The notes beneath the pieces are model-generated. The model searched no databases. It was not told the origin of the DNA and saw only the letters and a list, made by a program, of their open reading frames with translations. This document shows positions 2,953-30,903 of a stretch of 64,000 bases of DNA, piece by piece (positions within the stretch are counted from its first letter, which is position 1; each line of letters opens with the position of its first letter). This stretch comes from Actinomycetota bacterium. Its GTDB lineage: Bacteria > Actinomycetota > UBA4738 > CALAEC01. The stretch covers positions 50,651-114,650 of the forward strand of contig JBOGVS010000002.1 of assembly GCA_050692555.1 (NCBI GenBank). The letters run 5' to 3'. The position numbers and the translations under genes are program-made.

Positions 2953-2974
2953 GACCGGCAGGATACTCGTCCTG

Positions 2975-3725: not shown

Positions 3726-3762
3726 GGTGTGGTCCGGACCCGTTCCTTACCCCGGGCGGGGG

Positions 3763-8468: not shown

Positions 8469-8469
8469 C

Positions 8470-13847: not shown

Positions 13848-14324
13848 TCAGGCCTCCCGGGCTCGCTTCGCCGCCCGGCGGGCCAGCGCGTCGGGGATCT
13901 TCCGGAAGTCCCAGGAGGCGATGCGTTCCGGCGTCAGGCGAAACCACCGCCGACGCTTCCACTTCTTGTACGGTGACTCGTTCCCGCCGAGGTACTTCTT
14001 CGACTGCGCGCGCTCCACTTCGGGAAGAAGAGGATCGTCCTCGGCGAGGGTCACCGTTCCGGTGACCACCACCCCACGGAGCACCTCGTATTCCTCACCG
14101 TCGTCCACCACCGCCGCGGCCTGCCCCTCTCGGAGCAGGTTCTCCACGGTCGGGTTGCCCAGGGTGGAGTTGAAGAACATAGAGCCCTCGTGCCACACGT
14201 ACCAGAGCGGAACGACGTGTGGGGTGCCGTCGGGGCCGACCGTGGCCACCCGGACGGTCCGCCGTTCGCGGAGAAAGGCATCGATCTCCTCATCCGTGAG
14301 GTCGATGTCCAGCTTCCTACCCAT
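13848..14324 (-). CDS. Pyridoxamine 5'-phosphate oxidase family protein (PPOX class, F420/FMN-binding split barrel)
   Basis: LRERRTVRVATVGPDGTPHVVPLWYVWHEGSMFF... is typical of PNPOx-like F420-dependent enzymes. It is embedded inside the fol operon. Confidence 0.7.
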   Translation of the reverse strand: MGRKLDIDLTDEEIDAFLRERRTVRVATVGPDGTPHVVPLWYVWHEGSMFFNSTLGNPTVENLLREGQAAAVVDDGEEYEVLRGVVVTGTVTLAEDDPLLPEVERAQSKKYLGGNESPYKKWKRRRWFRLTPERIASWDFRKIPDALARRAAKRAREA

Positions 14325-15210
14325 CCTCCGGCTCCGGCCGCTCGAACGAAACCCCCAGGTCGACCGGCACCGGCCCGCCGTGGCCGTGCCGCTCCCCCAG
14401 GTAGTGGACCTTGAGGTACTCCGAGATCAGGGGGGCCACCGTCTCCGCGGCGTCGTCGAGGACGAAGTGGGAGCATCCCGGGAGCACGGCGACGGTGGCC
14501 CCCGGCAGGGCCTCGCCCAGCCGGTCGGCGATGTCCGAGGGCTGGAACGGATCGTCCTCCCCCCATACGACCAGCGTTCGGGTGTCGAGCTCCGCCATGC
14601 GGTCCTCGGTGCCCAGCAGGCCGATGCCGTCGATCCCCCGGGCGGCCCGCACCAGCGCCGGCGGATCCGCCCGCCAGGGCCGGACGTACTCCTGGAGATC
14701 TTCGTCGGCCAGACGGTCCCGGCGACCCATCCCCAGATCGAAGGTCAGTCCCACCACACCTTCCGCGAAGTCCGTGGTGGTCTGCTCGGGGGTGGCCTCC
14801 TGGAGCATCCGGACCCCCTCGATCGGCCAGGTGTCGAAGGCGATCGAGTCCAGCAGGGCCATGGTCCGGACACCACCCTCGAGGGCCAGGATCTGGGCCA
14901 CCCCACCGCCGATGTCGTGGCCGACGACTGCGAACTCATCCACGCCGAGGGCCTCGAGGAGCTCTCGCACGTAGCCGGCCTGAGCCCGGATGGTCAACGC
15001 CGAAGCGTCCTCGGGCTTGTCCGAGTCCCCGTAACCCAGAAGGTCCGGGGCGATGGCCCGGAATCGCGGAGCCAGGATGGGAACCAGGTCCCGCCACAGG
15101 TGCGAGGAGGTGGGGAACCCATGCAGGAGAAGGACTCCGGGTCCGTCACCCTCGTCCGCGACGGCCATCTCACCGCCGGAGACCGCCACCCGCTTCTTGT
15201 CCAGGATCAT
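14317..15210 (-). CDS. Alpha/beta-fold hydrolase
   Basis: PGVLLLHGFPTSSHLWRDL...VVGHDIGGGVAQ (nucleophile elbow GHDIG)...VVWGEDDPF...CSHFV. The ATG overlaps the folP stop (ATGA) and the 3' end overlaps the PNPOx-like start by 8 nt. Confidence 0.8.
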   Translation of the reverse strand: MILDKKRVAVSGGEMAVADEGDGPGVLLLHGFPTSSHLWRDLVPILAPRFRAIAPDLLGYGDSDKPEDASALTIRAQAGYVRELLEALGVDEFAVVGHDIGGGVAQILALEGGVRTMALLDSIAFDTWPIEGVRMLQEATPEQTTTDFAEGVVGLTFDLGMGRRDRLADEDLQEYVRPWRADPPALVRAARGIDGIGLLGTEDRMAELDTRTLVVWGEDDPFQPSDIADRLGEALPGATVAVLPGCSHFVLDDAAETVAPLISEYLKVHYLGERHGHGGPVPVDLGVSFERPEPEDG

Positions 15211-16055
15211 CTTCCCAGCCGGATGGCGTCCACCACTCGCAGCAGCCGGACCATCGGCTCGACGTCGTGGACCCGGATCACGTGGGCGCCCCGAGCGGCC
15301 ACGTAGGCCACCGCCCCCGCGGTGCCTTCCAGCCGCTGGTCGACGGGCAGGTCCCCCAGGGCCGTGCCGATGAAGGACTTCCTCGACGGGCCCACCACCA
15401 CCGGGACCCCCAGGTCGAGGAACGCGTCGATCTCCCGCATGAGCCGGAGGTTGTGCTCGTAGGTCTTCCCGAACCCCAGCCCGGGGTCGACGGCAAGACG
15501 GTCCCGGTCGATCCCGGCGTGCACCGCAGCCTCGAGGCGTTCGGCCAGAAACCCGTGGATGTCCCCGACCACGTCGTCGTACCGGGGCTCGCGCTGCATG
15601 GTCTTCGGCTCCCCAAGCATGTGCATGAGGACCAATCCCGCCGCGGTCTCCCGGACCACTCCGAACATCTCTGGATCGCGCCCCGCGGTGACGTCGTTGA
15701 CCGCCACCGCCCCGGCGTCGAGCGCCGCGGCGGCCACCTCGGACTTCCGGGTGTCCACCGATACCGGGACGTCCACCTCCGCGGCCAGTCGCTTGATCAC
15801 CGGGACCACCCGGTCGAGCTCCTCGGTGGCGGGGACGGTCTCGGACCCCGGGCGGGTGGATTCCCCGCCGACGTCGAGCACGTCGGCGCCCTCCTCGGCC
15901 AGTCGAAGCCCGTGGCTCACCGCGTCCTCGGGGTCGAGGAACCGCCCACCGTCGGAGAAGGAATCGGGGGTCACGTTGACCACGCCCATGACCAGGGTCC
16001 GGTCTCCCCAGTGCAGGACGCGCTTTCCCAGCCTCCATCGAAGGGTGTCGGTCAT
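15207..16055 (-). CDS. folP: Dihydropteroate synthase
   Basis: VMGVVNVTPDSFSDGG...DVGGESTRPG...VDTRKSEVAAAAL...GLGFGKT (pterin-binding TIM barrel). Confidence 0.95.
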   Translation of the reverse strand: MTDTLRWRLGKRVLHWGDRTLVMGVVNVTPDSFSDGGRFLDPEDAVSHGLRLAEEGADVLDVGGESTRPGSETVPATEELDRVVPVIKRLAAEVDVPVSVDTRKSEVAAAALDAGAVAVNDVTAGRDPEMFGVVRETAAGLVLMHMLGEPKTMQREPRYDDVVGDIHGFLAERLEAAVHAGIDRDRLAVDPGLGFGKTYEHNLRLMREIDAFLDLGVPVVVGPSRKSFIGTALGDLPVDQRLEGTAGAVAYVAARGAHVIRVHDVEPMVRLLRVVDAIRLGR

Positions 16056-16135
16056 CCCTTCAAGGGTAGCCGCCGACCTGGATCGCCGTGGAACCTCACG
16101 GGCGGTTCAGGCGTCTTCCCGACTGGAGGCGCGGC

Positions 16136-16651
16136 ATGATACGGACCCAGACCAGGGAGGCGACGTTGTCCGAAGGGGGACGCCTCGGCGAGCTGTACGA
16201 GGCCCACGCGCCGGACGCCGCTCGCCTGGCGTATCTGCTCACCGGCGACCGGTCTTTGGCCGAGGACCTGGTTCAGGAAGCCTTCGTCCGGCTGTTCGGA
16301 CGATTCCGGGACATCCGGAACCCCGAGGCATTCCCCGCCTACCTCCGGACGACCGTGGTCAACCTGACCCGATCACACTTCCGGCGGAAGAAGGTGGAGC
16401 GGGCCTACCTCGAGCGCGAGGGTCGAGCCGACACCCGGGGCCCGGGACCCGAGCCCGGAGGCGAGCAGGAGATGTGGGACGCGTTGCAGCGGCTGTCCCC
16501 TCGCCAGCGGGCCGCCATCGTGCTGCGGTTCTACGAAGACCTCACCGAGGCCCAGACGGCCGACGTCTTGCGGTGTCCGGTAGGCACGGTGAAATCGCTG
16601 GTGTCACGGGGCATCGACCGATTGCGCGGGGAGCTGACGAGGAGTGAGTGA
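16136..16651 (+). CDS. ECF-subfamily RNA polymerase sigma-70 factor
   Basis: Sigma-70 region 2 (LAEDLVQEAFVRLF) and region 4 (LTEAQTADVLRCPVGTVKSLVSRG). The start was chosen at MIRTQ; the track ORF begins 16 codons upstream at 16088. Confidence 0.8.
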   Translation: MIRTQTREATLSEGGRLGELYEAHAPDAARLAYLLTGDRSLAEDLVQEAFVRLFGRFRDIRNPEAFPAYLRTTVVNLTRSHFRRKKVERAYLEREGRADTRGPGPEPGGEQEMWDALQRLSPRQRAAIVLRFYEDLTEAQTADVLRCPVGTVKSLVSRGIDRLRGELTRSE

Positions 16652-17909
16652 CGTGGACCGAGACGTTCGAACGCTGCTCGAGGAGAAGGCCGAAGAGATG
16701 CGACTCGATCCCCGGATCCCGGGCCGAGTCCTGAAGCGAGCCCGGCGGCGCCGAGTGGTCAGTGCCACCGTGGCCGGCGCGGTGACCCTGGCGGCGGCGG
16801 TGGGGTTTTACGCCGGCGCCCGGGCCCTGCTTGATGAGGCTCCCGGCCCTCCGCCAGACCGAGACGTACAGCCTGCAGGCCGCCCAGCATCTGCCCCGAT
16901 CTGGCCGAGCAGCGAGGAGGAGATCCGGGCCATCCAGTCGCAGGTGGCCGAGGGCCACATCCCCCTGTGGCTGTCTCCGGGGGGAGTGGCCCATATGTAC
17001 GCCGTCAACGTGCTGGGCTGGGACCCCGAGGATGTCGAAGTTCGGGTGCCCGGCGACGACCCGGTGACCGCGGTGATTGCAAACCCGACGATGTCCGAGG
17101 CAGCCGGGGTGGCCAGCGACGTTCGAACGGCCCTCACGTTGGCGCGCGTCCCCGACACCGAGGATGGTGTCTATGTCGTAGCGGAAGCGCACGCAGAATC
17201 CTTGGGACTCGAGAGTCCAACTCCGGGGGATCCGGTAGCTCCAGGCGGAACGGTCGTCTGGTCAGGAGCTCTCACGGGATCCTTCCCTAGGGTCGTGATT
17301 GACATCGAACTCGAGTGGGAGGGCGAGCTTGAGGGAGGGACCATTGGGAAGGAGCTGAGCCCCCCTGCGCAAGCGCGAATCATGCTGCCTGCAGGCGCCA
17401 CGACTGCCCCAAAAGCAACTGCCCGAATCCGAACAATATCGGGGCGGGTGCTAGCCATTACCCAGTTCCGCCTTTCCCTGAGCGCAGACGGTGAACAGCC
17501 AGTAACGGACGAAGTCGCCGCGACCCGCGATGGCCTTCGGGAAGCCGCCCAGCTGCGCGACTGGGAAACTCTCGAACGACTGATCCCGGACACCGGGTTC
17601 ACCCACAGCTACGGCGGGGACACGGACCCGATCGCCTACTGGCAGGACCTGGAGCAGGAGGGGGAACCGGTCCTCGACATCCTGGCCACCCTTCTAGAGC
17701 TGGCGCCCGAACAGTTCCGAGGGACGTACATCTGGCCGGCACCGGCGGCCGAGAGCGTCGAGGACTGGGACCAGAGCGACCTCGACGTCCTGCGATTGAC
17801 GAACTCCGATCGCGACATTCGCCTGTTCCAGAGGTACGGCCTGTACCTCGGCTGGCGGGTGGGGATCGAGCCCGACGGTACCTGGGTGTTCTTCGTCGCG
17901 GGAGACTGA
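16644..17909 (+). CDS. Putative anti-sigma factor: single-pass membrane protein with a large extracytoplasmic domain
   Basis: GTG start 8 nt inside the sigma gene. It has a short cytoplasmic N-terminus, one TM (VVSATVAGAVTLAAAVGFYAGA) and an extracytoplasmic domain of about 330 aa with no recognisable family. Confidence 0.5.
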   Translation: MSDVDRDVRTLLEEKAEEMRLDPRIPGRVLKRARRRRVVSATVAGAVTLAAAVGFYAGARALLDEAPGPPPDRDVQPAGRPASAPIWPSSEEEIRAIQSQVAEGHIPLWLSPGGVAHMYAVNVLGWDPEDVEVRVPGDDPVTAVIANPTMSEAAGVASDVRTALTLARVPDTEDGVYVVAEAHAESLGLESPTPGDPVAPGGTVVWSGALTGSFPRVVIDIELEWEGELEGGTIGKELSPPAQARIMLPAGATTAPKATARIRTISGRVLAITQFRLSLSADGEQPVTDEVAATRDGLREAAQLRDWETLERLIPDTGFTHSYGGDTDPIAYWQDLEQEGEPVLDILATLLELAPEQFRGTYIWPAPAAESVEDWDQSDLDVLRLTNSDRDIRLFQRYGLYLGWRVGIEPDGTWVFFVAGD

Positions 17910-17913
17910 GGGC

Positions 17914-18541
17914 CTAAGCTTCGATCAGGGCGGCGCGGGCGGGGGCGCCGTCGCCGCCCATCACCTTGAGCGGCAGGCACACGAACGTGTAGGTCCCCGG
18001 CTCCACCCTGGAGAGGTCCAAGCCCTCGACGATGATCGTCCCGCCGCCCAGCAGCGTGCGGTGAACCGGGTGGTCGGGTCCCTCGGTCTTCTCCACCGAC
18101 AGGAAGTCCACCCCGACCAGTTTCAGCCCGCGGTCCACGATCCACCGAGCGCCTTCGGGACTGACCGCCACGTAGTCGTCGGGGAACGCCGGCCGGGACT
18201 GGGTCCACAAATCGGAGTTCCGGGTCCGGCACAACAGCCGCTGCACGTCGTCGGGAAGCTGCAGGGCCTCGAGCTCCTTCGGGCCGACGGCGGAGGTCTG
18301 CCACCACGGCCTCGCCGAAGAACACCTCCAGATCCAGGCGGTCCACGGGATCGGCGCCGTCGATGAAATGAACGGGTGGGTCCACGTGGGTCCCGGTGTG
18401 GGAGCCCATGTGGATCTCGGACACGTTGGCCGGATCGCCGCGCTCCAGGAGCTTGGCTCGCTCGACCGTAACGCCGGGGTCCCCGGGCCAGGTCAGCAGG
18501 TCGTCCCCGATCCCCAGCGAGACGTCGATGATCCGGCTCAT
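17914..18541 (-). pseudogene. Cyclase-family protein (kynurenine formamidase-like), disrupted by a +1/-1 frameshift near 18285
   Basis: The N-terminal part MSRIIDVSLGIGDDLLTWPGDPGVTVE...HMGSHTGTHVDPPVHF...EVFFGEAVVADL is in one frame. The C-terminal part AVGPKELEALQLPDDVQRLLCRTRNSDLW...HPVHRTLLGGGTIIVEGLDLSRVEPGTYTFVCLPLKVMGG is in the adjacent frame. The two join cleanly if a single base is removed. Confidence 0.6.
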
Positions 18542-18638
18542 CCCCCCATCCTTTCCGGGCCCGGCTCCCTGGGTCGCCCACTGGCGAAACGGCCCCGCCC
18601 GCGGCAGGGTTATAGCAGGGCGCCCAGGGGAGGAGCCG

Positions 18639-19685
18639 ATGAAGGCAGTCACCCTCGTACCGCTGAAGTCGGGGACCGCCGAGCTCAGCGATGTCCCCGA
18701 GCCGGACCCCGCGGAAGGATCGGTGCTGGTGGAGGCCGTGGCGGTCGGCGTCGACGGCACCGACCAGGAGATCATCGACGGGCAGTACGGGGAGCCGCCG
18801 CCGGGGAAGGACCGCCTGGTCTTGGGCCATGAGTCCCTCGGCCGGGTCCTGGAGGCCCCCGCGGAAAGCGGGCTCTCAGAAGGCGACCTGGTGATCGGCA
18901 TCGTCCGGCATCCCGACCCGGTGCCCTGTCCACAGTGCGCCGCCGGCGAATGGGACATGTGCACCAACGGCCGGTACACCGAGCACGGGATCAAGGGGCG
19001 CGATGGGTTCATCAGGGAGCGCTACCGGCTGGAACCCGGCCGAGCCGTGAGGGCCGAGCCGTCGCTCGACGACCTGGCGGTGCTCACCGAGCCCACCAGC
19101 GTGGTGGCCAAGGCGTGGGACCACGTCGAGCGGATCGGCAGCCGGGCGACGTGGAAGCCTCGGCGCGCCCTGATCACCGGCGCCGGACCCATCGGCCTGT
19201 TCGCGGCGATGCTCGGGGCCCAGCGGGGGATCGAGATGCACGTGGTCGACAGGGTCAAGGAGGGCCCCAAGCCGGCGCTGGTCGAGGACCGGGGGTGGTG
19301 CTACCACTCCGACCTCGAGCAGACCGAGGAGGGCGGGTTCGACGTGGTGATCGAGTGCACGGGCGTCGGGGCGCTGGTGTTCCACGCCATCGAGCACACC
19401 GCTCCCGGAGGAGTGATGTGCCTCACCGGGATCGCCTCCAGCGACCGGAAGGTACCGCTGGACGCATCCCTGTTGAACAAGCACATGGTGCTCAACAACA
19501 CCGTGGTGTTCGGCTCCGTGAACGCCGGCCGGCGCCACTACGAGCAGGCCGCCGAGGCCCTGGCCAACGCCGATCCCGCCTGGCTGGAGCGGCTGATCAC
19601 CCGGCGGGTGCCGCTGGAGCGCTGGAGCGAGGCGCTGGAGCGGCAGCCCGACGACGTGAAGACCGTGATCGCCTTGGGGACCTGA
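18639..19685 (+). CDS. Zn-dependent MDR-family glucose 1-dehydrogenase-like (archaeal GDH type)
   Basis: Catalytic GHESLG motif, a structural Zn Cys cluster (PCPQCAAGEWDMC) and a Rossmann GAGPIGL motif. GGAGG precedes the ATG; the start was set at MKAVTLV inside the track ORF. Confidence 0.8.
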   Translation: MKAVTLVPLKSGTAELSDVPEPDPAEGSVLVEAVAVGVDGTDQEIIDGQYGEPPPGKDRLVLGHESLGRVLEAPAESGLSEGDLVIGIVRHPDPVPCPQCAAGEWDMCTNGRYTEHGIKGRDGFIRERYRLEPGRAVRAEPSLDDLAVLTEPTSVVAKAWDHVERIGSRATWKPRRALITGAGPIGLFAAMLGAQRGIEMHVVDRVKEGPKPALVEDRGWCYHSDLEQTEEGGFDVVIECTGVGALVFHAIEHTAPGGVMCLTGIASSDRKVPLDASLLNKHMVLNNTVVFGSVNAGRRHYEQAAEALANADPAWLERLITRRVPLERWSEALERQPDDVKTVIALGT

Positions 19686-19688
19686 GCC

Positions 19689-21800
19689 GTGGAGGCCGAG
19701 GAGAAGGTCGAGAAGCAGGGCGCTCAGGTCGACCTGCCCCCAGGGTCCATCCAGGTCCTCGAGGGCTCGACGTTCATGCTGTCCGACCCGCGAGGGGACG
19801 TGTTCGACGGGTCGGTGGCCGGCCTGTACCACGAGGACACCCGCCATCTGAACCGCTTCGTCCTGACGGTGAACGGAGAAGCCCCAACGGTGCTCACGTC
19901 CAACGAGGTGGACTACTACTCGGCGGTGTTCTTCCTCACCAACCCCGACCTCGACGGGATCGCCGGAAAGAACCTGACGATCCAACGGCACCGCTTCGTG
20001 GGGGACGGGATGCGGGAGACCATCACGGTCCGCAACCATCTCCGGGAGACGGTTCGCATCGAGCTTCGGTTGTCGGTGTGGGCGGACTTCGCCGACCTGT
20101 TCGAGGTCAAGGGGAAGGACTTCCGCAAGGCCGGCACCGCCGGCCGGTCCCACGACCCGGCGAACAGCACGCTGGGGTTCGACTACGAGCACGAGACGTT
20201 CCGGGCCGCCACCAGGGTCCGATCCAGCCAGCCCGCCCGGATCGACGGCGACGACCTGGTGTGGGACCTGGAGCTGGAGCCGCTCGGAACCTGGCACACA
20301 GGCGTGCTGGTGACGGTGAACGTGGACGAGGAGGTCATGGAGCCCACCCACGACACCTTCGGCCAGCCGGAGCGGAAGGCCAGCGCGGTGCTGAAGACGT
20401 GGCAGGACGAGGTCCCCCAGGTGACCGGGGGCTACGACGTCGTGTGGCACGTGATGGAGCGGTCGGTCGTGGACCTGGCCTCGCTGCGACTCCAGGCGTG
20501 TGTTGAGGGCAACGAGTTCTCGCTGCCCGCCGCCGGCCTCCCGTGGTTCATGGCCATCTTCGGCCGGGACACCCTGATCACCTCGTACCAGTCGATCTGG
20601 GTGGGCCCCGAGCTGGCCCGGGGCGCGCTCATCGCCCTGGCCGGCCTCCAGGGCAGGGAGATGAACGACTTCAAGGACGAGGAGCCGGGCAAGATCCTGC
20701 ACGAGATCAGGTTCGGGGAGCTGGCGTCGCTGGACCTCAAGCCCCACCGTCCGTATTACGGCTCGTCCGATTCCACTCCGCTGTGGCTGGTCCTGCTGTC
20801 CGAGTACTGGCGGTGGACCCGCGACGACGCCACCGTCCGGGACCTCAAGGACAACGCGCTCCGAGCCCTGGCATGGATCGACCGCTACGGCGACCTCGAC
20901 AGTGATGGTTATATCGAGTACAAGACGCGCTCCGAGCAGGGACTGCGCACGCAGGGCTGGAAGGACTCATGGAACGGCATCCTGTTCGCCGACGGCTCCA
21001 TGCCCGAGGTCCCCATCGCCCTGTGTGAGTTCCAGGGCTACGCCTACGACGCCAAGCAGCGAACCGCGGAGCTCGCCGAACAGGTGTGGAAGGACCCCGA
21101 GCTCGCGGCCCGGCTGCGCCGGGAGGCCCGGGAGCTCTTCGAGCGCTTCAACCGGGACTTCTGGATCGACGAGCGAGGCGGGTACTACGCCCTTGGCCTG
21201 GACAGGGACAAGCGCCAGATCGACTCGCTGACCTCCAACATGGGCCACCTGTTGTGGTCGGGCATCGTCCGTGAGGACCGGGCGCCGATCGTGGCCCGGC
21301 AGCTGCTGGGTGACGGTATGTGGTCGGGGTGGGGTGTTCGCACCATGTCGTGGGACGACGCCGGGTACAACCCCATCGGCTACCACATCGGGCCGGTGTG
21401 GCCCCACGACAACTCCATCATCTCCGCGGGCCTGTACCGATACGGCCTCCGCGAGGAGGCCAACCGGATCGCGGTGGCCATGCTGGAGGCGTCCTCGTAC
21501 ACGGAGTTCCGTCTCCCGGAGGTGTTCGCCGGCTATTCGCGCAGCGAGGCGCCGTTCCCGGTGCGCTACCCCACCGCCTCCAGCCCTCAGGCGTGGGCCA
21601 CCGGAGCCCCGTTCCTGTGGTTCCGGCTCGCCCTGGGACTGGAGCTGGGAGAAGGCGAGCTGACCATCGACCCCCTGGCCCCCAAGGAGCTCGGCCGGAT
21701 GGGGCTCCAGGGCATCCACGCCCTCGGTGAGCGCTGGGACCTGTGGGCCGAGGGGTCCGACGGGGAGATCACCAGAGCGAAGGGAGGAAATCACCGATGA
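19689..21800 (+). CDS. Amylo-alpha-1,6-glucosidase / GDE_C-family glycoside hydrolase (archaeal-type debranching-enzyme-like)
   Basis: GDE N-terminal domain and an (alpha/alpha)6 catalytic domain with FMAIFGRDTLITS, YYGSSDSTPLW and GYHIGPVWPHDN motifs. Confidence 0.8.
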   Translation: MEAEEKVEKQGAQVDLPPGSIQVLEGSTFMLSDPRGDVFDGSVAGLYHEDTRHLNRFVLTVNGEAPTVLTSNEVDYYSAVFFLTNPDLDGIAGKNLTIQRHRFVGDGMRETITVRNHLRETVRIELRLSVWADFADLFEVKGKDFRKAGTAGRSHDPANSTLGFDYEHETFRAATRVRSSQPARIDGDDLVWDLELEPLGTWHTGVLVTVNVDEEVMEPTHDTFGQPERKASAVLKTWQDEVPQVTGGYDVVWHVMERSVVDLASLRLQACVEGNEFSLPAAGLPWFMAIFGRDTLITSYQSIWVGPELARGALIALAGLQGREMNDFKDEEPGKILHEIRFGELASLDLKPHRPYYGSSDSTPLWLVLLSEYWRWTRDDATVRDLKDNALRALAWIDRYGDLDSDGYIEYKTRSEQGLRTQGWKDSWNGILFADGSMPEVPIALCEFQGYAYDAKQRTAELAEQVWKDPELAARLRREARELFERFNRDFWIDERGGYYALGLDRDKRQIDSLTSNMGHLLWSGIVREDRAPIVARQLLGDGMWSGWGVRTMSWDDAGYNPIGYHIGPVWPHDNSIISAGLYRYGLREEANRIAVAMLEASSYTEFRLPEVFAGYSRSEAPFPVRYPTASSPQAWATGAPFLWFRLALGLELGEGELTIDPLAPKELGRMGLQGIHALGERWDLWAEGSDGEITRAKGGNHR

Positions 21801-22723
21801 GGTTCGGGATCGTGGGACTGGGGCGCATGGGCGCAAACCTCGCCCGCCACGCAATGGAGAAGAGCCATCAGGTGGTCGGGTATGACCCGGCCGAGCAGGC
21901 GCGCAAGGAACTCGCCGGGGAGGGCATGGAGCCGGCGGCCTCGCTGGAGGAGCTTGCCGGGAAGCTGGAGCCGCCGCGGGTGGTCCTCCTGTACGTCCCG
22001 CATGGGGACATCACCGAGCAGGTCTGCCGAGACATCCGTCCCGTGCTTACTGAGGGCGACATCGTGATGGACGGAGGGAACTCCCACTGGAAGGACTCCG
22101 AGCGCCGGTACGGCTTCTTCGCCGAGACGGGAATCAAGTTCCTCGACTGCGGGACCAGCGGCGGCGTCGATGGAGCCCGCACCGGGGCGTGCTTCATGGC
22201 CGGCGGCCCCAGGGAGGCCTACGAGGTGGTGGAGCCTCTCCTCAAGGACCTGGCCATCGACGAGCTCGGCGTGGTCCACGCCAGCGAGGCCCCGGGCAGC
22301 GGGCACTTCGTCAAGCTGGTGCACAACGCCATCGAGTTCGGGATGAACCAGTCGATCGCCGAGGGCGTGGAGATGCTGATGCGCTCGGGGTACCCAATCG
22401 ATCTCCCGGCCGTATTCGTCAACTGGAACCACGGCTCGGTGATCCGAAGCTGGCTGGTCGAGCTCATGGGCCAGCAGCTGCAGAAGTACCTGGCCGAGTG
22501 GGACCAACTCTCCACGTACGTCGAGGACACCGAAGAGGTGAAGTGGGTGCTGAACTGGGCGATGGACGAGGACATCCCCTCTCCGGTGATCGCTCTCTCC
22601 CAACAGGCCCTCCTGCAGTTCCGGGACCTCGACTGGCCCGCAGCGAAGGCGCACGCGCTGCTGCGCAACGCCTACGGCGGCCACCCGATCCTCAAGGTGG
22701 GCGACACGAAGCCGCGCGCCTGA
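21797..22723 (+). CDS. 6-phosphogluconate dehydrogenase-like (decarboxylating, short NAD-dependent YqeC/Gnd-like form)
   Basis: MRFGIVGLGRMGANLARH...LDCGTSGGVDGARTGACFMAGG...HFVKLVHNAIEFGMNQSIAEG. ATGA overlap with the preceding gene. Confidence 0.8.
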   Translation: MRFGIVGLGRMGANLARHAMEKSHQVVGYDPAEQARKELAGEGMEPAASLEELAGKLEPPRVVLLYVPHGDITEQVCRDIRPVLTEGDIVMDGGNSHWKDSERRYGFFAETGIKFLDCGTSGGVDGARTGACFMAGGPREAYEVVEPLLKDLAIDELGVVHASEAPGSGHFVKLVHNAIEFGMNQSIAEGVEMLMRSGYPIDLPAVFVNWNHGSVIRSWLVELMGQQLQKYLAEWDQLSTYVEDTEEVKWVLNWAMDEDIPSPVIALSQQALLQFRDLDWPAAKAHALLRNAYGGHPILKVGDTKPRA

Positions 22724-22731
22724 AGGTCCGC

Positions 22732-23286
22732 CTACTCGAGGGCCGCGGCGGCGAACCCCACCTCGAAGCGGCGGCACCACACCACGGCCGTGGAGTACCG
22801 GTCCAGGTCGACGTCCTCCGGGAGATCGTAGTTCTGGTCGCCGATGTTGCCCTTCAGCACGCCGAGATCGACGAAGTCCCGGTCGTAGCCGTGCCAGTCG
22901 TCGGTCCCCGCCGGGGTCTTAGCCGAGAGATACACGACCAGGTCCGGGCCGTTGGAGGTCTCGAAGTCGTCGAACCGCAGGAACCGCCCGCCGGTCGCGG
23001 TCTCCACGATCAGGGCCCGGCCGGTGGACTGGTGCTCCAGGCTGATGAACTCGCCCTCGGCAACGGTGGACGGCCCGGGCATCCCGGCGGCCGTTCCCGG
23101 ATCCTCCTCAGCAGCGGTCTCCGTTTGTGCCGCGGGGGCACCCGGAAGGGCCTCGTTCACCCGGTCCTCGGTGAACAGGCGGTCCGGCCGGAACCACAGG
23201 AACCCGAACACCAGGGCCGCGAGGCCCACGACTCCCACGACCGCGGTGCGTCCCGGATGCCGCCTGATCGCCCCGGTGACGTCCAT
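22732..23286 (-). CDS. DM13-domain membrane-anchored protein (putative electron-transfer domain)
   Basis: N-terminal TM, then EGEFISLEHQSTGRALIVETATGGRFLRFDDFETSNGPDLVVYLS, which matches the DM13 domain. Confidence 0.65.
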   Translation of the reverse strand: MDVTGAIRRHPGRTAVVGVVGLAALVFGFLWFRPDRLFTEDRVNEALPGAPAAQTETAAEEDPGTAAGMPGPSTVAEGEFISLEHQSTGRALIVETATGGRFLRFDDFETSNGPDLVVYLSAKTPAGTDDWHGYDRDFVDLGVLKGNIGDQNYDLPEDVDLDRYSTAVVWCRRFEVGFAAAALE

Positions 23287-23398
23287 TGCTCTCGACCACC
23301 TTACGTTCGGGACGTTGCGGATTCCTTACCGTGCCCGGGATCACCGGGCTCAGAAGGGCGGCAAGGTCTCTGAAACAGTTCCGGGTGACAATGGAGCC

Positions 23399-24084
<686 letters not shown>

Positions 24085-24088
<4 letters not shown>

Positions 24089-25308
24089 ACCGCTGGCGCC
24101 CGATCGCCCTGGCCGCCGTGGTGGCGGCGTCCGGCGCGGGAGGGACGATCCTGGCCGGCGCCGCGGCCGGGATGGGAGCCGGCGAGGTGGCCCACCTCGC
24201 GGCTCTGATGCTCCCCGCGGTGGGTGCGACGCTGGTCGCGGTGTGGGCCGCGCGCCCGCTGCTCCGACGGGCCACGTTCCGGCAGCGCCTCATGTCGGTG
24301 GCGCTCGTGGCGGTGGTGGCCAGCCTGGCGAACCTGGCGGTGCTGGCCGGCCTGATGTTCGTGAGCGCCCACGACGCCACGCTCATGGCCGCGCTGGTCG
24401 CCTACTCGGTGGGTGCCGGTGCCGGCGTCGCCCTGGTGCTGGCCCGGGACACCACGTCGGCGGTGGACAGGCTGACCCATTCCGCGCTCGAGCTGGCCGA
24501 GGGCAACCTGGACGCTCGCGTCGGACCGATCGACGGAGGGCCGGAGCTCCAGGCCCTGGGCTCGGCGCTCGACGAGACGGCCACCCGGCTCCAGGCGTCG
24601 ATCGCCGCCGAGCGAGCCGGAGAGGCGAAACGCCGGGATCTGATCACCGCGGTGTCGCACGACCTCCGGACGCCACTGGCTGGGCTCCGGGCCATGGTGG
24701 AGGCGATCGACGACGGCGTGGTCGACGACCCTCCCAGCCTCCGGCGCTACGTCGGCGAGATGCGCCGGCAGGTTCAGTCCCTGGTCGTCCTGGTCGACGA
24801 TCTCTTCGAGCTGGTGCAGCTGGACGCCGGAGCCATCGAGGCAGAGTCGGAGAGGGCTCGGCTGGCGGACGTGGTGGGTTCCGCGGTGGCGGCCTGCGGG
24901 GCACAGGCCGCGGAGAAGCGGCTGGTGGTGGAACAACGCCTGAACAGCGCGGGCGAGGCCCTGTGCTCGCCCCGGCTCGTCCGCGTGCTCCAGAACCTGC
25001 TCCAGAACGCCATCCGGCACACGCCGGCCGACGGCACGGTCCGGATCGAGGCCCGCCCGGAGGCCGGCGGCGTGGAGGTCGTGGTGGAGGACGGCGGCGA
25101 GGGCATCCCCCCCGAGAGCGCCGACCTGGTGTTCGAACCGTTCTGGCGAGGCGAAGCGGCCCGGACCTCCCCGGGCTCCGGCCTGGGCCTGGCCCTGGCC
25201 AAGCGGATCGTGGAGACGCTCGGCGGGGCCATCAGCGTCCGCAGCGACTCCACCACGGGGGCGAGATTCGCGGTCCTGTTGCCGGGACGGGCGGCTTCGC
25301 CGCAGTAG
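24085..25308 (+). CDS. Sensor histidine kinase (multi-TM, HAMP, HisKA, HATPase_c)
   Basis: GTG start overlapping the RR stop as GTGA. H-box VSHDLRTPLAGL, N/G-boxes LQNLLQNAIRHT...GSGLGLALAKRIVE. Confidence 0.85.
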
Positions 25309-27081
25309 CTACAGACCGGCGGCGATCACCGCGCGGGTCACCCGATCGGCGATCGAGGGGAGCGGAGACTCCCGGCCGACCCACGGGTCACCGTCGAAGT
25401 ACAGCCCGAAGATCCGCTCCGCGGTGCGGGTGGCCAGGGCCTGGGTGGTGAGCGTGGGATTGGGACCCCCCAGGGAGTTGGCCAGCGCCGAGTTGTCCGC
25501 CACGAACAGGCGCTTGACCCACCGGGCCTCGGCGTTCTCATCGAGGACCGAGTCGTCCTCGCCGATCCCCATGCGCATCGTGGACTGGACGTGGAGGATC
25601 AGGGGCGGCCAGTTCAGCCGGTGGACATCGGTGGCCCCCGCCGCCCGGAGCAGCTCCACGGCCTTTCCCACGAGGAACTCCCGGTTCCGGAGGGTCCTGG
25701 CCGTTCGCTCGCGCGGGTGGAACTCCACCCGGGCCACGGGGCCGTGCTCGTCGGAAGGAAACGCCTGCGACAGCGTGACCCGGTTCTGGGCCTCGACGTC
25801 GTCGTCGGTGATCACCAGGACGTTCAGGATCCGGTTGACGTCGGACACCATCCTCTTGAGAGCCCCGCCGACGATCCGGCCCGAGGTGTCGGCGCCGCCG
25901 GCGGCGGGCAGGCCGTTGTCGTAGAACCCGGCCATCCCCGCGTCGCTGAACGTCGCCGAGAACGTCTGCAGTGCGGGAGGGAGCCCCACGTTCTCCAGGC
26001 CACCGCGCCCGGGGAAGTCGCACCGGGCCGAGGAGCCCGGGCCCTTGCTGGATCCGGTGTCGAACGGCATCACTCCGATGACCCAGTCGAAGAAATGGTC
26101 GGTGTAGCCGCGGCCCACCCAGTCGTTGGGGTTCGGGAGCCCGCTGTTGAACCACAGCCGGGGGTTCTCGGTGCAGCCGCCGGCCATGACCACCACCCGG
26201 GCGTCCTCGGTGACCTGCTCACCGCTCTCCCCCACCCGCCAGGTCACGCCCGTGGCCGCCGGAACCCCGTCCTCCTCGGCGGTGTGGATCTGCACCACGA
26301 ACGCGTCGGGGATCAGCTCGATCGAACGTCCCCCGCGGGCCCATGACGAAGCAGTGAGGGCCATGGGGATGTAGCTGTTGTCGGTGGACCGCTTGGCGAA
26401 CAGGTTCCGGGGCGCGTTGATCGGCTCCATACATCCCTGGAAGCAGTAGCCGCAGAACGTGCACCCCCGAGCCTTCGGATACACGAGCTGCCGCGCGTCG
26501 CTGGTCCGGCCCGCGGTCCCACCCGGCTGGAGGATGGCGTTCTCCTGCGGGCGGAACGAGTCGCGGGTGGTGTCCTTGGATACCTGCACGGGGAGCCCCA
26601 GGCCCTCGGCGCCGCGGAAGAACTCCTGCTCCTTGGTGCCCATGGCCGCGGTCTGGACGGGGAGGGTCTCCTCCACCCACTCGTAATACGGAACCAGCGA
26701 GCGGTAGGAAAAGGGAAACTCGTGAGCCCGGTCGTAGGCGTCACGGTCGGGTCGGTCGTAGCCGAGGAACACGCCGGGGGTGGCCCGGGGCGAGTTCCCG
26801 TAGTAGTGCTGAGTGGTACCGCCCACCCCGGAGAGCTGCCACAGGAAGGAGCTCTGGGGGATCTCCCGGAGCCACGCGGGCTTGGTCCGGTCGGCGGGTC
26901 CGAACCGGAAGTACCCGCCCAGCGGGTTGTTGGCGTCGTTCTCGAAGTGGGTCCATTCGCTCCGAGGGTCGGAGTGACGAGGCCCCGCCTCCAGCACCAG
27001 GACGTCGAGGCCCCGCTGGGCCAGCTCCTTCGCGGCCACCGCGCCGCCACCCCCGGCTCCGATCACGATGACGTCGCGCAT
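25309..27081 (-). CDS. GMC-family FAD-dependent oxidoreductase (gluconate 2-dehydrogenase flavoprotein-like)
   Basis: MRDVIVIGAGGGGAVAAKELAQRGLDVLVLEAG FAD fold, with GMC C-terminal motifs. Its stop codon abuts the convergent HK stop at 25308/25309. Confidence 0.85.
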   Translation of the reverse strand: MRDVIVIGAGGGGAVAAKELAQRGLDVLVLEAGPRHSDPRSEWTHFENDANNPLGGYFRFGPADRTKPAWLREIPQSSFLWQLSGVGGTTQHYYGNSPRATPGVFLGYDRPDRDAYDRAHEFPFSYRSLVPYYEWVEETLPVQTAAMGTKEQEFFRGAEGLGLPVQVSKDTTRDSFRPQENAILQPGGTAGRTSDARQLVYPKARGCTFCGYCFQGCMEPINAPRNLFAKRSTDNSYIPMALTASSWARGGRSIELIPDAFVVQIHTAEEDGVPAATGVTWRVGESGEQVTEDARVVVMAGGCTENPRLWFNSGLPNPNDWVGRGYTDHFFDWVIGVMPFDTGSSKGPGSSARCDFPGRGGLENVGLPPALQTFSATFSDAGMAGFYDNGLPAAGGADTSGRIVGGALKRMVSDVNRILNVLVITDDDVEAQNRVTLSQAFPSDEHGPVARVEFHPRERTARTLRNREFLVGKAVELLRAAGATDVHRLNWPPLILHVQSTMRMGIGEDDSVLDENAEARWVKRLFVADNSALANSLGGPNPTLTTQALATRTAERIFGLYFDGDPWVGRESPLPSIADRVTRAVIAAGL

Positions 27082-27824
27082 CAGCGGCCCTTGGTGCCCT
27101 CAGCCCGACGGCGGCCACCGTAGTAGCCGCGGAACTCCTCCCAGCCCTCGGCGGGGACCAGGCGTCCCGGCTGGTACCGAGTGAGATCCCAGCCCACCGG
27201 CCGCTCCGTCAGCTGCCGGGTGGCGGGGTCGAGTGCGTGCCACTCCCCGAAGGACACGAAGGTGGCGAACCCTGGGAGGATGCCGGCGGTGAACCGAAGG
27301 GCCCCGGAGGTCTCGTCGTCGCCTGGCGTGGCCTCGAGTCGCCGGAACACCTCGGCCTTCTCCGCGAAGGCCAGGCGGGCGAAATGCGAGGGGAACGGCC
27401 CGCCGGCGGCCACCGGGTTCACCTGCGCCGCGGTGGCGTTCAGGAGGTTGGCCACCGCCCCGGAGAGCGGCACGGTGGCGTCGTTGCCCTGGCCGATGTC
27501 CGGTGCGGGGACGAACCGGTCGAGGTTGGAGATCAGGTTCTCGGTCCCCTTCGCGGCGATGCCCCCCGGCTCCGCGGTGCTCTCCCCCTGGGCCACCGAG
27601 TACTCGTCGGGTCCCGGGACCACGAAGGCGATGAGCCCGTTGATGGTGTCCCGGGTGAGGTCCAGGTCCTGTGCCGAGGCCACGTCCAGCATGCCCCGGG
27701 CCCGAAGAACCCCCGGGAGCTGGGCCAACACCGCCCCGACCCCCACCATCCCGGCCCGGGCCAGAAAGGCCCGGCGGGTCAGCGATCGGTCTGAGAGCTC
27801 CTGGCCGTCGGGGGCGGCGGGCAT
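27081..27824 (-). CDS. Gluconate 2-dehydrogenase subunit 3-family small subunit, Tat-secreted
   Basis: Twin-arginine leader LTRRAFLARAGMVGVGAVL; about 247 aa. ATGA overlap with the GMC gene. The start was chosen at MPAAPDGQ inside the track ORF 27081..28094. Confidence 0.65.
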   Translation of the reverse strand: MPAAPDGQELSDRSLTRRAFLARAGMVGVGAVLAQLPGVLRARGMLDVASAQDLDLTRDTINGLIAFVVPGPDEYSVAQGESTAEPGGIAAKGTENLISNLDRFVPAPDIGQGNDATVPLSGAVANLLNATAAQVNPVAAGGPFPSHFARLAFAEKAEVFRRLEATPGDDETSGALRFTAGILPGFATFVSFGEWHALDPATRQLTERPVGWDLTRYQPGRLVPAEGWEEFRGYYGGRRRAEGTKGR

Positions 27825-27876
27825 CGTCGCCGAAGAGTTCGCCGCCGGTGCTTGGATTCCTCCCGGGGAGCCCGGC

Positions 27877-28362
27877 TCACGGCAGGGACCGCTCCATTTC
27901 GACCTCCAGGAGGGACGGATGAGAGCGGAGAGGCTTGGAACGCCCGGTCGGCTTGAATCCGGCCCGCCGGTACAGCTCGGTGGCCGCCTGGTTCGTCTCC
28001 GTGACCCACAGCCGGGCCTGGGTCCATCCTTCGGCCCCAGCCCAGCCCAGTGCCGCCTCCAGGAGCCGGGTGGCAAACCCCGTCCGGCGGGCATCCGGGA
28101 CCACCCACATTCCCCAGATCATCGCCGGACCCCCTGGCGTTTCCTCGGAGCATCCAGTCATGCCCACCCACGCTCCGTCGAGGATGGCAACGAAGATCGG
28201 GGTCCGGGCCGTCGCCCGCCAGCTCTCCTCCGGAAGCGCTTCCTCCTCGCGAAGGCTCCTGCCGAACGCGGAGGGAGCGTCCATCAGGGCCCGTAGCCGG
28301 AGGGTTCGGAGCTCCTCCCACTCCTCGGGGTGGACGCGCCGTACTTCGGCGGAGCCGGACAT
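27877..28362 (-). CDS. GNAT-family N-acetyltransferase
   Basis: The acetyl-CoA-binding motif (WVVPDARRTGFATRLLEAAL...LWVTETNQAATELYRRAGF) is present. It lies immediately downstream of folE. Confidence 0.7.
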   Translation of the reverse strand: MSGSAEVRRVHPEEWEELRTLRLRALMDAPSAFGRSLREEEALPEESWRATARTPIFVAILDGAWVGMTGCSEETPGGPAMIWGMWVVPDARRTGFATRLLEAALGWAGAEGWTQARLWVTETNQAATELYRRAGFKPTGRSKPLRSHPSLLEVEMERSLP

Positions 28363-28376
28363 CTGGTGTCGAGGGT

Positions 28377-28955
28377 TTACCGGTCGCCGCGGATGAGGCC
28401 CATGGCCTCGGCGCGGGTCCGGGCGTCGGTCTTGAACACCCCGCGAACCGCGGAGGTCACGGTGGTGGAGCCGGGCTTCTTCACTCCGCGCATCGACATG
28501 CACAGGTGCTCTGCCTCGATCACCACGAACACCCCTCGGGGCTTCAGCGTGCGTTCCAAGACCTCCGCGATCTCGGTGGTCAGCCGCTCCTGGACCTGCG
28601 GACGCTTGGCCAGCACGTCCACCAGCCGGGCCAGCTTCGACAGGCCGGTGATCCGCCCGTCCTCACCGGGGACGTAGCCAACGTGGGCCTTCCCGACCCA
28701 GGGAATGAGGTGGTGCTCACAGATCGAGTACAGGGTGATGTCCCGGACCATGATCATCTCGTCGTGGCCCACGTCGAACACCGTGTCCACCACGGCGTCG
28801 GGTTCCTGGTGGAGGCCGGCGAACACCTCCAGGTACATCTCGGCGACCCGCCGGGGAGTGTCCTTCAGGCCGTCACGGCCGGGGTCCTCGCCGATCCCCT
28901 CGAGGATGAGCCGCACGCCCTCCTCGACCTTCTGGGAATCGAAAGAGTCAGCCAA
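28377..28955 (-). CDS. folE: GTP cyclohydrolase I
   Basis: [13 protein letters not shown]...[30 protein letters not shown]...[10 protein letters not shown]...PQVQERLT. Confidence 0.95.
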
Positions 28956-30903
28956 GGGAGCTGCCGGGGCCGTCCTTGTCGTGGTGGACGCTCCGGCGGG
29001 CCACGGCGATCCCGGTGCCCTCGCGATGACCGTTTCGCGGCGCTCGCTTCCCCAGGCCCTCGAGCAGCTTGACCAGGTCGTCCTTCTCGATGGTCTCCCG
29101 CTCGATCAGCGCCGCGGCGATCTCGTCGAGCTTCGACCGCTCCGTCTGGAGGATCTCCAGGGCCTCGTCGTGGGCCTCGTCGATCAGTCTGCGAACCTCG
29201 GAGTCGATCTCGAACGCCACCTGGTCGGAGTAGTCCGGCTGGGTGGCGAAGTCCCGGCCCAGGAACACCTCGCCCTGACGCTGCCCCAGGGTGAGCGGCC
29301 CGAGCTGATCCGACATCCCGTATTCGGTGACCATGCCCCGGGCGATCTTGGTGGCCCGCTCCAGATCGTTTTGGGCACCGGTGGTGACATCCCCGATGAC
29401 CATCTCCTCCGCCACCCGGCCACCGAGCAGCATGGCCAGCTCGTCGATCATCTCTGACCGGGTTACCAGGAACTTGTCCTCGGTGGGAAGCGTCTGGGTG
29501 TACCCCAGCGCGCGCCCTCTGGGGATGATCGAGATCTTGTGCACCGGGTCGGAGTTGGGCAGCACGTGAGCCACCAGCGCGTGGCCGCCCTCGTGGTACG
29601 CGATGATCCGCTTCTCCCGCTCGGAGATCAGCCGGGTCTTGCGCTCGGGCCCGGCCATCACCCGGTCGATGGCCTCCTCGAGCTCGTACATGCTGATCGC
29701 CGACTTGCTACGCCGCGCGGTGAGCAACGCGGCCTCGTTGAGCACGTTGGCCAGGTCGGCGCCGGTGAACCCCGGGGTGCGACGAGCCACCACGTCCACA
29801 TCCACTTCCGTGTCGAGCGGCTTGCCCTTGCCGTGGACCTTGAGGATCCCCCGACGGCCCTCCAGGTCCGGCCGGTCGATCACCACCTGCCGGTCGAACC
29901 GTCCGGGGCGAAGGAGCGCGGGGTCCAGGATGTCGGGGCGGTTCGTCGCGGCCATCAGGATCACCGCGGTGCGGGTGTCGAACCCGTCCATCTCCACAAG
30001 GAGCTGGTTGAGGGTCTGCTCCCGCTCGTCGTGGCCACCACCCAGTCCCGCGCCTCGGTGCCTGCCCACCGCGTCGATCTCGTCGATGAACACGATGGCC
30101 GGAGCGTTGGTCTTGGCTTGCTCGAACAGGTCGCGGACCCGAGCCGCCCCCACGCCCACGAACATCTCCACGAAGTCGGATCCGGAGATCGAGAAGAACG
30201 GGACGCCGGCCTCTCCGGCCACCGCCCGAGCCAGTAGGGTCTTGCCGGTCCCCGGTGGCCCGTACAGCAGCACTCCCCTGGGTATCTTGGCTCCCATGGC
30301 CTGGAACTTCACCGGGTTCTCCAGGTACTCCTTGACCTCCCGGAGCTCCTCGACGGCCTCGTCGACGCCGGCGACGTCGTCGAACGTGGTCTTGGGCTGG
30401 TCCTTGGTGACCTGGCGAGCCTTGGACTTGCCGAACTGGAGCACCCGGTTCCCGCCGCCCTGGCCCTGATTGAAGATGAACAGGAAGATCCCGAACAGCA
30501 GGATGAACGGCAGGATGTTGATCAGGACGTTGACGATGGTGGAGCCCTTCTGCGGGTCGGCTTGTACGTCGACCCCGGCGTCCTTCAGGTTGGTGACCAG
30601 CTCGTCCTGATACTCGAGGGGGTACTCGGCCCGGAACGGACGGTTGCCGGCGAGCTCCCCCTGGACCACTTGCTCGCGTTCCAGGAACACGGCGGACTCC
30701 ACCTTCCCCTCCGAGGCCAGCGATTCGAGCTCGGTGAAGGTGATCTTGTCCGCAGCCGGGCCCCGGCTGCTGAAGTTGACGAACAACCACAGAGCCCCAA
30801 GCACCACCAGGAGGTAGAGGAGCGGACCACGAAGGAGCCGACGGATGTTCAACTCGTTGCGCTTCGTGGGGGCTCCCTTCCGGCGGGGACCGCGACCGAC
30901 CAA
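28948..30903 (-). CDS. ftsH: ATP-dependent zinc metalloprotease FtsH
   Basis: Two N-terminal TMs, an AAA module ([18 protein letters not shown]), the SRH and HEGGHA zinc motif. Confidence 0.95.

Follow-up and report, generated by a model that had tools for sequence, protein, structure and literature searches.

A gene block, probably old and vertically inherited, between folE and folP in an uncultured actinobacterial clade

In mycobacteria, as in actinobacteria generally, folE, folP, folB and folK follow ftsH in one cluster, which in Mycobacterium tuberculosis we take to be Rv3610c-Rv3606c. Here we describe a block of 12 genes (12,321 bp, positions 16056-28376) that lies between folP and folE in an Actinomycetota bacterium (GTDB lineage Bacteria; Actinomycetota; UBA4738; CALAEC01). 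The whole stretch of DNA that was analysed, called the window below, comprises 64,000 nucleotides of contig JBOGVS010000002.1 (assembly GCA_050692555.1, positions 50,651 to 114,650). All five genes of the cluster are present in the window, in the order ftsH, folE, folP, folB, folK and on one strand, so that genes, order and orientation are the same as in the mycobacterial and general actinobacterial arrangement. The wider backbone also agrees, with hpt and tilS upstream and panC, coaX, lysS and clpC downstream. Unlike in the mycobacterial cluster, however, folE and folP are 12.3 kb apart and are separated mostly by genes of the opposite strand. Therefore, co-transcription of folP-folB-folK with folE is no longer possible, and the three genes must now be transcribed apart from ftsH-folE. 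We found nothing in the literature on folE/folP synteny that was relevant to Actinomycetota.

Oliveira, Touchon, Cury and Rocha (2017; PMC5635113) describe mobile-element-free hotspots between core genes, which turn over through recombination at the core genes that flank them. A first-pass annotation of the window had regarded the block as the most likely place for lineage-specific or horizontally acquired functions. By comparing the junction among relatives and outgroups, we conclude with good confidence that the block is an old, vertically inherited and lineage-specific part of the chromosome and not a recent island, and that it entered once and then underwent turnover of its modules.

The block in the window, its relatives and outgroups

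The window has a G+C content of about 69%. Genes were called by third-position G+C (GC3 frame analysis) and cross-checked with Pfam and NCBIfam. The three agree on the gene content that the first-pass annotation had listed, namely a pair of extracytoplasmic function (ECF) sigma and anti-sigma genes, a cyclase, three sugar genes, a DM13 gene, a two-component system, a GMC oxidoreductase with a twin-arginine translocation (Tat) signal protein and a GNAT, and the block that it had put at about 12 kb was confirmed. The block genes and their boundary genes are as follows.

15207-16055, minus strand: folP, dihydropteroate synthase, left boundary gene (Pfam Pterin_bind, 6e-86)
16136-16651, plus strand: ECF sigma factor, SigE family (Sigma70_r2 and r4; TIGR02983)
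16653-17909, plus strand: presumed anti-sigma factor, overlapping the sigma gene, with one predicted transmembrane helix
17914-18541, minus strand: PF04199 'cyclase', an arylformamidase-like metal hydrolase, here a pseudogene in two frames (Pfam, 9e-20 on the joined halves)
18639-19685, plus strand: zinc-type glucose 1-dehydrogenase of the archaeal type (ADH_N and Glu_dehyd_C, 8e-68)
19689-21800, plus strand: GH176-like exo-alpha-glucosidase, annotated 'glycogen debranching enzyme' (GDE_N_bis, 6e-50, and MGH1-like; match to 7VMA)
21797-22723, plus strand: short-form decarboxylating 6-phosphogluconate dehydrogenase, 6PGD (TIGR00872 gnd_rel, 318 bits against a cutoff of 297)
22732-23286, minus strand: membrane-anchored DM13 domain protein (Pfam DM13, 1e-24; N-terminal transmembrane helix at residues 14-32)
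23399-24088, plus strand: OmpR-type response regulator (Pfam)
24085-25308, plus strand: HAMP histidine kinase with four transmembrane helices (Pfam; transmembrane prediction)
25309-27081, minus strand: GMC-family flavin adenine dinucleotide (FAD) oxidoreductase (GMC_oxred_N and GMC_oxred_C)
27081-27824, minus strand: small protein of 247 aa with a twin-arginine signal (TRRAFL motif), the conserved upstream partner of the GMC gene
27877-28362, minus strand: GNAT acetyltransferase, directly downstream of folE (Acetyltransf_1, 7e-18)
28377-28955, minus strand: folE, right boundary gene (Pfam GTP_cyclohydroI, 1e-75)
28948-30903, minus strand: ftsH, right boundary gene (Pfam Peptidase_M41 and AAA)

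A FolP scan with one genome per species gave 80 loci, onto which all window proteins were mapped. Further intervals came from loci with glycosidase or Tat-partner homologues. In the clade to which the window belongs, nine of nine loci, from at least seven distinct genomes or metagenome contigs at species level, have a block at the folE–folP junction. The carriers L166, L162, L163/L164, L165, L002, L005/L173 and P0157 are all independent assemblies, and L003 and L004 are added to them. The first-pass annotation had itself named close relatives with the block at this position as the finding that would make it ancestral to the lineage. In all four closest species (L002-L005, FolP 70-76% identical), the gene beside folP is likewise an ECF sigma gene divergent from it. 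On contigs that continue, anti-sigma, cyclase, glucose dehydrogenase and glycosidase genes come next, followed in L002 by 6PGD and DM13. The trio of cyclase, glucose dehydrogenase and GH176 genes was found in every interval that reaches past the ECF genes (7/7), and all else varies. Seven different gene contents between folP and folE were counted within the clade. Those of other members, with open reading frame given as ORF, include the following.

L162: ECF, anti-sigma, small ORF, cyclase, glucose dehydrogenase, GH176, DM13, response regulator, kinase, small ORF
L163/L164: two ECF/anti-sigma pairs, cyclase, glucose dehydrogenase, GH176, DM13
L165: cyclase, glucose dehydrogenase, GH176, DM13, GMC, Tat partner, one ORF
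L173 (full L005 contig): two ECF/anti-sigma pairs, cyclase, glucose dehydrogenase, GH176, solute-binding protein, cation-efflux protein, GMC, Tat partner, Fic, one ORF
P0157 (JGI contig): ECF, anti-sigma, cyclase, glucose dehydrogenase, GH176, solute-binding protein, cation-efflux protein
L082 (short metagenome contig): folE, Tat partner, GMC, DM13

The variable modules occupy the same relative position in separate branches. The GMC–Tat pair was found in the window, L166, L165, L173 and L082, and the two-component system in the window, L166 and L162 (77% identity for the regulator and 67% for the kinase in L162). Among the relatives, 6PGD occurs only in L166 and L002, in both together with a Na+/H+ exchanger, of which the window keeps 6PGD only. 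The GNAT gene is shared with L166 only. A neighbour-joining tree of concatenated LysS, CoaX, PanC, DUF2520, FolK, FolP, FolE and FtsH placed the nine block-bearing loci in one clade in 200/200 bootstrap replicates. Identity to the relatives was 65-83% for block orthologues and 59-85% for backbone proteins; the presumed anti-sigma factor, at 30-51%, is the exception among block proteins.

Among outgroups, the gap between folE and folP was less than 130 bp in 25 of 33 loci, and the remaining loci carry unrelated fillings. In L019 (4730-9963) and L023 (4806-9961), about 5.2 kb at this junction encode a 1,200-1,300-aa zinc-ribbon/adenylate-cyclase/AAA/TPR protein, an ECF sigma factor and an anti-sigma factor with TolB-like repeats. 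L006 holds the same ECF pair alone, which differs from that of the window and is co-directional. The contents of L019, L023 and L006 are independent fillings of the same junction. L020 has an FTR1 permease and a cupredoxin-like protein, and L008 and L016 a TMEM175-like channel. Glucose dehydrogenase, GH176, cyclase and DM13 genes were present in no outgroup filling. Since folE and folP are adjacent in most other Actinomycetota sampled, the block is a derived, lineage-specific insertion. Thus the first-pass annotation was right about lineage specificity, whereas its suggestion of recent or horizontal acquisition is at odds with the nine carriers and with a composition native to the window.

Origin and turnover of the block

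We propose that a single insertion at folE–folP, in the common ancestor of this uncultured Actinomycetota clade, split the ancestral ftsH-folE-folP-folB-folK cluster. The junction would since then have been a hotspot free of mobile elements and flanked by core genes. The core, a PF04199 hydrolase gene divergent from the genes for glucose dehydrogenase and GH176, would have been retained, and whole-gene modules would come and go: one or two ECF/anti-sigma pairs, 6PGD with the Na+/H+ exchanger, DM13, the two-component system, GMC with its Tat partner, and GNAT, as well as Fic, cation-efflux and solute-binding proteins in other members. The variation in content among relatives marks the junction as a place of gene flux, and the best account of the rest is later turnover, since separate branches have each variable module in the same relative place. 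Such turnover most likely proceeded via homologous recombination in flanking or internal conserved genes.

The copy in the window appears to be a reduced one. Over 22 kb, the window DNA is 95.6-99.1% identical (blastn) to L166, a JGI metagenome sequence. Two segments of L166 are absent from the window, at these junctions.

17910-17920: missing cassette of 1,456 bp (second ECF sigma and anti-sigma genes), between the anti-sigma and cyclase genes
22724-22731: missing gene of 1,171 bp (Na+/H+ exchanger, 389 aa), between the 6PGD and DM13 genes

L002, L005 and L163 likewise have the second ECF/anti-sigma pair, and L002 has the exchanger at the same spot (74% identity), indicating that the window reached its state by deletion. 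The ends of both deletions lie only a few bases from neighbouring stop codons, and no repeats flanking them were found. The cyclase, already described as frameshifted in the first-pass annotation, has lost 11 bp (CTCGTTCGCCT) at 18289 compared with the intact 212-aa copy of L166. The gene is intact (212-213 aa) in L162, L163, L165, L166 and L173. A homopolymer error was ruled out as the cause of the frameshift, given an 11-bp deletion relative to a 96% identical strain. The latest changes in this genome thus appear to be losses and not gains. Being old, vertically inherited and now losing genes instead of recently acquired, the block would be a fairly ordinary one.

The identity to L166 (11169-30632) changes in steps, from 96.7% between panC and the ECF sigma gene to 95.6% between cyclase and 6PGD and 99.1% between DM13 and ftsH, which suggests a mosaic of recombination tracts. 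The anti-sigma protein is only 51% identical to that of L166, whereas the adjacent sigma factor is 98% and the flanking DNA 96-99% identical. Its outer domain has no DNA similarity to L166 over 17042-17555 (about 500 bp) and only 78% identity over 17556-17910. This points to a swapped allele or to rapid divergence of a sensor domain that is exposed at the surface and has no known family. The identity steps and the swapped-looking outer domain would fit allele replacement by homologous recombination, as judged from the comparison of two sequences.

Several points weigh against an old block with later turnover. The relatives are metagenome-assembled genomes (MAGs) and metagenome contigs, several of which are truncated; in L003 and L004 the sequence stops past the folP-proximal ECF/anti-sigma genes and shows the ECF side only. 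The tree was built from query-anchored tblastn segments and is not a genome phylogeny, and L005 contributed only 260 columns. Ancestral presence with loss of modules was preferred to repeated gain by parsimony alone. In addition, the GMC protein is 78% identical to the copy of L174, which lies in an unrelated context, and 75% identical to the syntenic copy of L165, so exchange of the GMC–Tat module between lineages is possible. Finally, L172, a more distant relative, has a GH176–cyclase pair elsewhere in the genome, which is compatible with translocation or transfer as the source of the insertion.

We also considered that the twelve genes might form one integrated system, for example a sugar-oxidation regulon under the ECF sigma factor or the two-component system and controlled by envelope signals. 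The sugar and redox theme (glucose dehydrogenase, GH176, 6PGD, GMC and DM13), the constancy of the core and the divergent arrangement of the DM13 and response regulator genes in the window, L166 and L162 would agree with this. However, the core is found without the ECF pair in L165, without two-component system or GMC in L163 and without DM13 in L173, which argues against a single integrated system. Furthermore, dozens of unrelated contexts contain the GMC–Tat pair and no neighbour recurs among them, and the ECF motif is present within the block only upstream of the sigma gene.

16090-16116, plus strand: putative ECF-type promoter, GGAACC-N15-GCGTCT, upstream of the sigma gene (sequence conservation)

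This motif is kept upstream of the sigma gene in 8 of the 8 related loci aligned and is the sole intergenic copy in the block. Other candidate copies, which would have indicated a block regulon, were rejected, as they lie inside coding DNA only and their number does not exceed that in shuffled sequence. Given that the motif is not repeated in the intergenic DNA of the block, the sigma factor looks autoregulated, driving its own predicted promoter, and nothing ties it to the sugar genes. A scan for sigma-70 promoters and terminators found no promoter, and terminator-like sites were no commoner than in shuffles. Nothing was found that would join the modules into one regulon, and we hold an integrated system to be distinctly unlikely.

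A wider ancestry, in which the block is ancestral to a much larger part of the Actinomycetota and adjacent folE–folP results from repeated loss, was judged very unlikely. Some outgroup insertions at the junction place an ECF/anti-sigma pair beside folP (L006, L019 and L023) and could be read as remnants. These pairs, however, point the other way with respect to folP than the pair of the window does, and their sigma factors are 31-34% identical to that of the window. The short gaps of most outgroup loci extend over very divergent lineages, the fillings hold none of the core genes or DM13, and the distant GH176 homologues stand in unrelated contexts, in L167, L169, L171 and, far from the fol genes, L172.

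Horizontal transfer of a recent genomic island into this genome or species is what an interrupted, widely conserved cluster, accessory-type functions and differing content between close relatives would bring to mind. The GC3 values of the anti-sigma (0.757) and GNAT (0.821) genes are also among the lowest of the window genes analysed, that of the anti-sigma gene being the lowest. Nevertheless, the composition of the block is indistinguishable from that of its flanks, in the comparison that the first-pass annotation had proposed. GC is flat across the block, the tetranucleotide distance of 4-kb windows inside it has z values of -1.6 to +1.3 against the window-wide distribution, and block genes do not differ from the other 41 window genes in GC (Mann-Whitney p = 0.57), GC3 (p = 0.14) or codon-usage distance (p = 0.52). 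A sign change of the GC skew over 16-28 kb was rejected as a mark of foreign origin; it is due to the switch of coding strand, because most block genes are on the plus strand.

Mobility signatures were also absent, as the first-pass annotation had noted for integrase, tRNA and direct repeats. Pfam and NCBIfam found no integrase, recombinase, transposase or phage gene inside or at the border of 16056-28376, and there is no room for an integrase, since 12 otherwise assigned genes fill the coding space and no intergenic gap exceeds about 115 bp. ARAGORN called a tRNA-Ser (anticodon tga, 94 nt, 27920-28013, plus strand), which was rejected as an integration site: it lies antisense inside the GNAT ORF, has no Rfam support at the gathering threshold and is very likely a spurious call of the kind met in high-GC DNA. 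The only Rfam tRNA of the window is a tRNA-Thr at 37456-37529. A search of 15000-29500 for direct and inverted repeats found none at the boundaries; all matches were short, of low identity and within coding sequence, the best boundary match being 38 nt long with 71% identity. Plasmid records matched no more than stretches of one gene or one gene pair (19% of the query or less; identity of 63-68% among the matches listed), and phage records did not match the block. Moreover, every clade member that reaches far enough has the same core, the proteins diverge in step with the backbone, and the genome-specific changes are deletions. The chance that the block is a recent island is therefore, in our estimate, slight. 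An artefact of assembly or binning, conceivable for a MAG contig, is next to impossible, as the same order is found in independent NCBI, JGI and ENA assemblies, including a strain that is 96-99% identical.

Genes of the block and its flanks

The sigma protein consists of regions 2 and 4 only (Pfam) and scores 158.2 bits in TIGR02983 against a cutoff of 141.55. The first-pass annotation had started the block at 16088. This is the start of the longest ORF, but the conserved promoter occupies 16090-16116 and the sigma gene thus more likely starts at 16136. The presumed anti-sigma factor has a short cytoplasmic N-terminus, a transmembrane helix at residues 35-53 and an outer domain of about 365 aa (transmembrane prediction). 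Neither Pfam nor NCBIfam gave a match to it or detected an anti-sigma domain.

Within the core, the cyclase gene is transcribed divergently from those for glucose dehydrogenase and GH176. The nearest solved structures of the glucose dehydrogenase are the glucose dehydrogenases of Haloferax and Sulfolobus, and the glycosidase has a full-length match to PDB 7VMA, TgAMY (5e-89, residues 27-683). Judging from the protein families, GH176 would free glucose from an alpha-glucoside, the glucose dehydrogenase would oxidise it to gluconolactone or gluconate, and 6PGD may tie this oxidation to the pentose-phosphate route. A route from alpha-glucoside through glucose to gluconolactone is thus a plausible function of the core; that the PF04199 metal hydrolase acts on the lactone is speculation. 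In L172 (3315-6033, outside the fol context), a GH176 homologue stands beside a PF04199 'cyclase', with a Pyridox_ox_2 gene and a trehalose phosphatase gene. In L169 (9130-20306), another is near a Na+/H+ exchanger, a transketolase, a transaldolase-PGI and a short 6PGD. These recurrent associations hint at a functional link.

The GMC protein is predicted to have neither signal peptide nor transmembrane segment. Among solved structures it is closest, though with weak similarity, to the alpha subunit of Burkholderia cepacia FAD-glucose dehydrogenase (6A2U) and the large subunit of Gluconobacter fructose dehydrogenase (7W2J). It is also 70-79% identical even to proteins labelled Acidimicrobiales, Thermoleophilaceae and Dehalococcoidia. 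Its Tat-signal partner stands beside a GMC gene in 69 of 80 metagenome loci, and R17 and R18 are invariant across 24 homologues. The partner has no match in Pfam, NCBIfam or PDB, its AlphaFold model has no convincing fold match, and no relation to known gamma or hitchhiker subunits was detected. It looks like an undescribed small-subunit family. The GMC flavoprotein may be exported by hitchhiking on this partner and act as an extracytoplasmic dehydrogenase, as the families suggest. Recurrent neighbours that could give a clue to the substrate were found in none of dozens of unrelated contexts. The block holds no cytochrome c subunit gene, and no third gene recurs at other GMC–Tat loci.

The GNAT gene differs by 1 bp in its N-terminal part between the window (28297) and L166 (19776), so that the gene call is 135 aa in L166 against 161 aa in the window. 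The gene may be damaged in one of the two strains, or a later start may be used in L166.

The minus-strand backbone consists of clpC, lysS, coaX, panC, a DUF2520 gene, folK, folB, a PNPOx-like gene, an alpha/beta hydrolase gene and folP and continues beyond the interval with folE and ftsH. An identical FolP protein is encoded on contig CDIQYQ010000028.1 (NCBI GCA_975419715.1), where the gene calls match this layout. The distal part of the split cluster is as follows.

12985-13503, minus strand: folK (Pfam HPPK, 1.6e-40)
13500-13847, minus strand: folB (Pfam FolB, 4e-22)
13848-14324, minus strand: PNPOx-like gene, between folB and folP (Pfam)
14317-15210, minus strand: alpha/beta hydrolase gene, between folB and folP (Pfam)

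The fol genes are therefore split not only by the block, as first annotated, but also by these last two genes, which make up a gap of 1,359 bp between folP and folB that the mycobacterial cluster does not have. Their frames overlap or abut within the folate operon. The hydrolase gene occurs at this spot in the ingroup and most of the sister clade (L006-L026), and the PNPOx-like gene in the ingroup and L012 only. Variable DNA of 4.7-6.8 kb was also seen between ftsH and folE in L007 (about 4700-9330) and L008 (about 1900-8630), encoding HAD hydrolase, glyoxalase-like, GNAT-like and DnaJ-like proteins and other ORFs, indicating that the neighbouring junction is open to insertion as well. Between panC and coaX, where mycobacteria presumably have panD, the gene calls of CDIQYQ010000028.1 give a 162-aa gene (10787-11275, minus strand) that has, of quinolinate phosphoribosyltransferase, the N-terminal domain alone (PF02749).

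A more far-reaching interpretation would combine these features. The folE–folP junction would be a long-lived, mobile-element-free exchange site with gene-precise borders; the invariant core an undescribed route from alpha-glucoside to gluconate with the 'cyclase' as lactonase; and the GMC protein with its family-less Tat partner a new type of exported two-subunit dehydrogenase, widespread in soil bacteria. We consider this whole unlikely.

Comparison with described systems

The sigma gene belongs by family to the ECF sigma/anti-sigma modules (SigE family, TIGR02983), and a putative GGAAC ... CGTC autoregulatory promoter is present. A lead from this module is the sensor domain of the anti-sigma factor, in which half of the residues differ between strains whose identity elsewhere is 96-99%.

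In B. cepacia FAD-glucose dehydrogenase and Gluconobacter fructose dehydrogenase, the flavoprotein is exported together with a small Tat-signal subunit. As in the gamma-alpha-beta complex of B. cepacia (6A2U) and the complex of Gluconobacter (7W2J), the block encodes a GMC catalytic subunit without signal directly after a small twin-arginine protein. A Cys-rich motif, CTFCGYCFQGC, follows the stretch of the GMC protein that aligns with the B. cepacia alpha subunit. Unlike in these Tat-hitchhiking FAD dehydrogenase complexes, no cytochrome c gene lies alongside, and the small subunit has no detected kinship to theirs. A conserved GMC protein with a Tat partner that matches no known family or fold is a second lead, and the constant trio of GH176, glucose dehydrogenase and PF04199 genes a third.

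For the glycosidase, the closest described enzymes are those of CAZy family GH176, to which a preprint (10.64898/2026.07.01.735942) assigns 7VMA. According to the same preprint, another member, from Arthrobacter humicola A8F5, is an exo-acting alpha-1,2-glucosidase, and most GH176 homologues are named debranching enzymes by transfer from TgAMY. The glycosidase of the block matches TgAMY over its full length, and its assignment to the family is by sequence similarity. Its adjacency to glucose dehydrogenase and PF04199 hydrolase genes is not described in the GH176 paper (10.64898/2026.07.01.735942).

The block resembles classical genomic islands and integrative elements in that accessory genes interrupt conserved synteny. 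Unlike these, it has no integrase, no tRNA or att site and no compositional bias, and the block as a whole is not patchily present among close relatives. The comparison prevents a wrong call, since a block that looks like an island and breaks a textbook cluster is most probably old, native and decaying. It also shows that an insertion cannot be dated by comparison with a reference as distant as Mycobacterium.

The hotspots of Oliveira et al. (PMC5635113) are closer. The block shares with them a fixed position between core genes (folE/ftsH and folP), a content that differs among relatives and the absence of integrase, transposase and phage genes. The whole-gene insertions or deletions and the mosaic identity between near-identical strains are compatible with the recombination described for such hotspots. 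Unlike in those hotspots, the core here has been kept through the history of the clade, the content is mostly old and not strain-specific, and the data come from MAGs instead of a species pangenome. The junction thus offers a clean example, from an uncultured actinobacterial lineage, of a mobile-element-free hotspot between essential genes.

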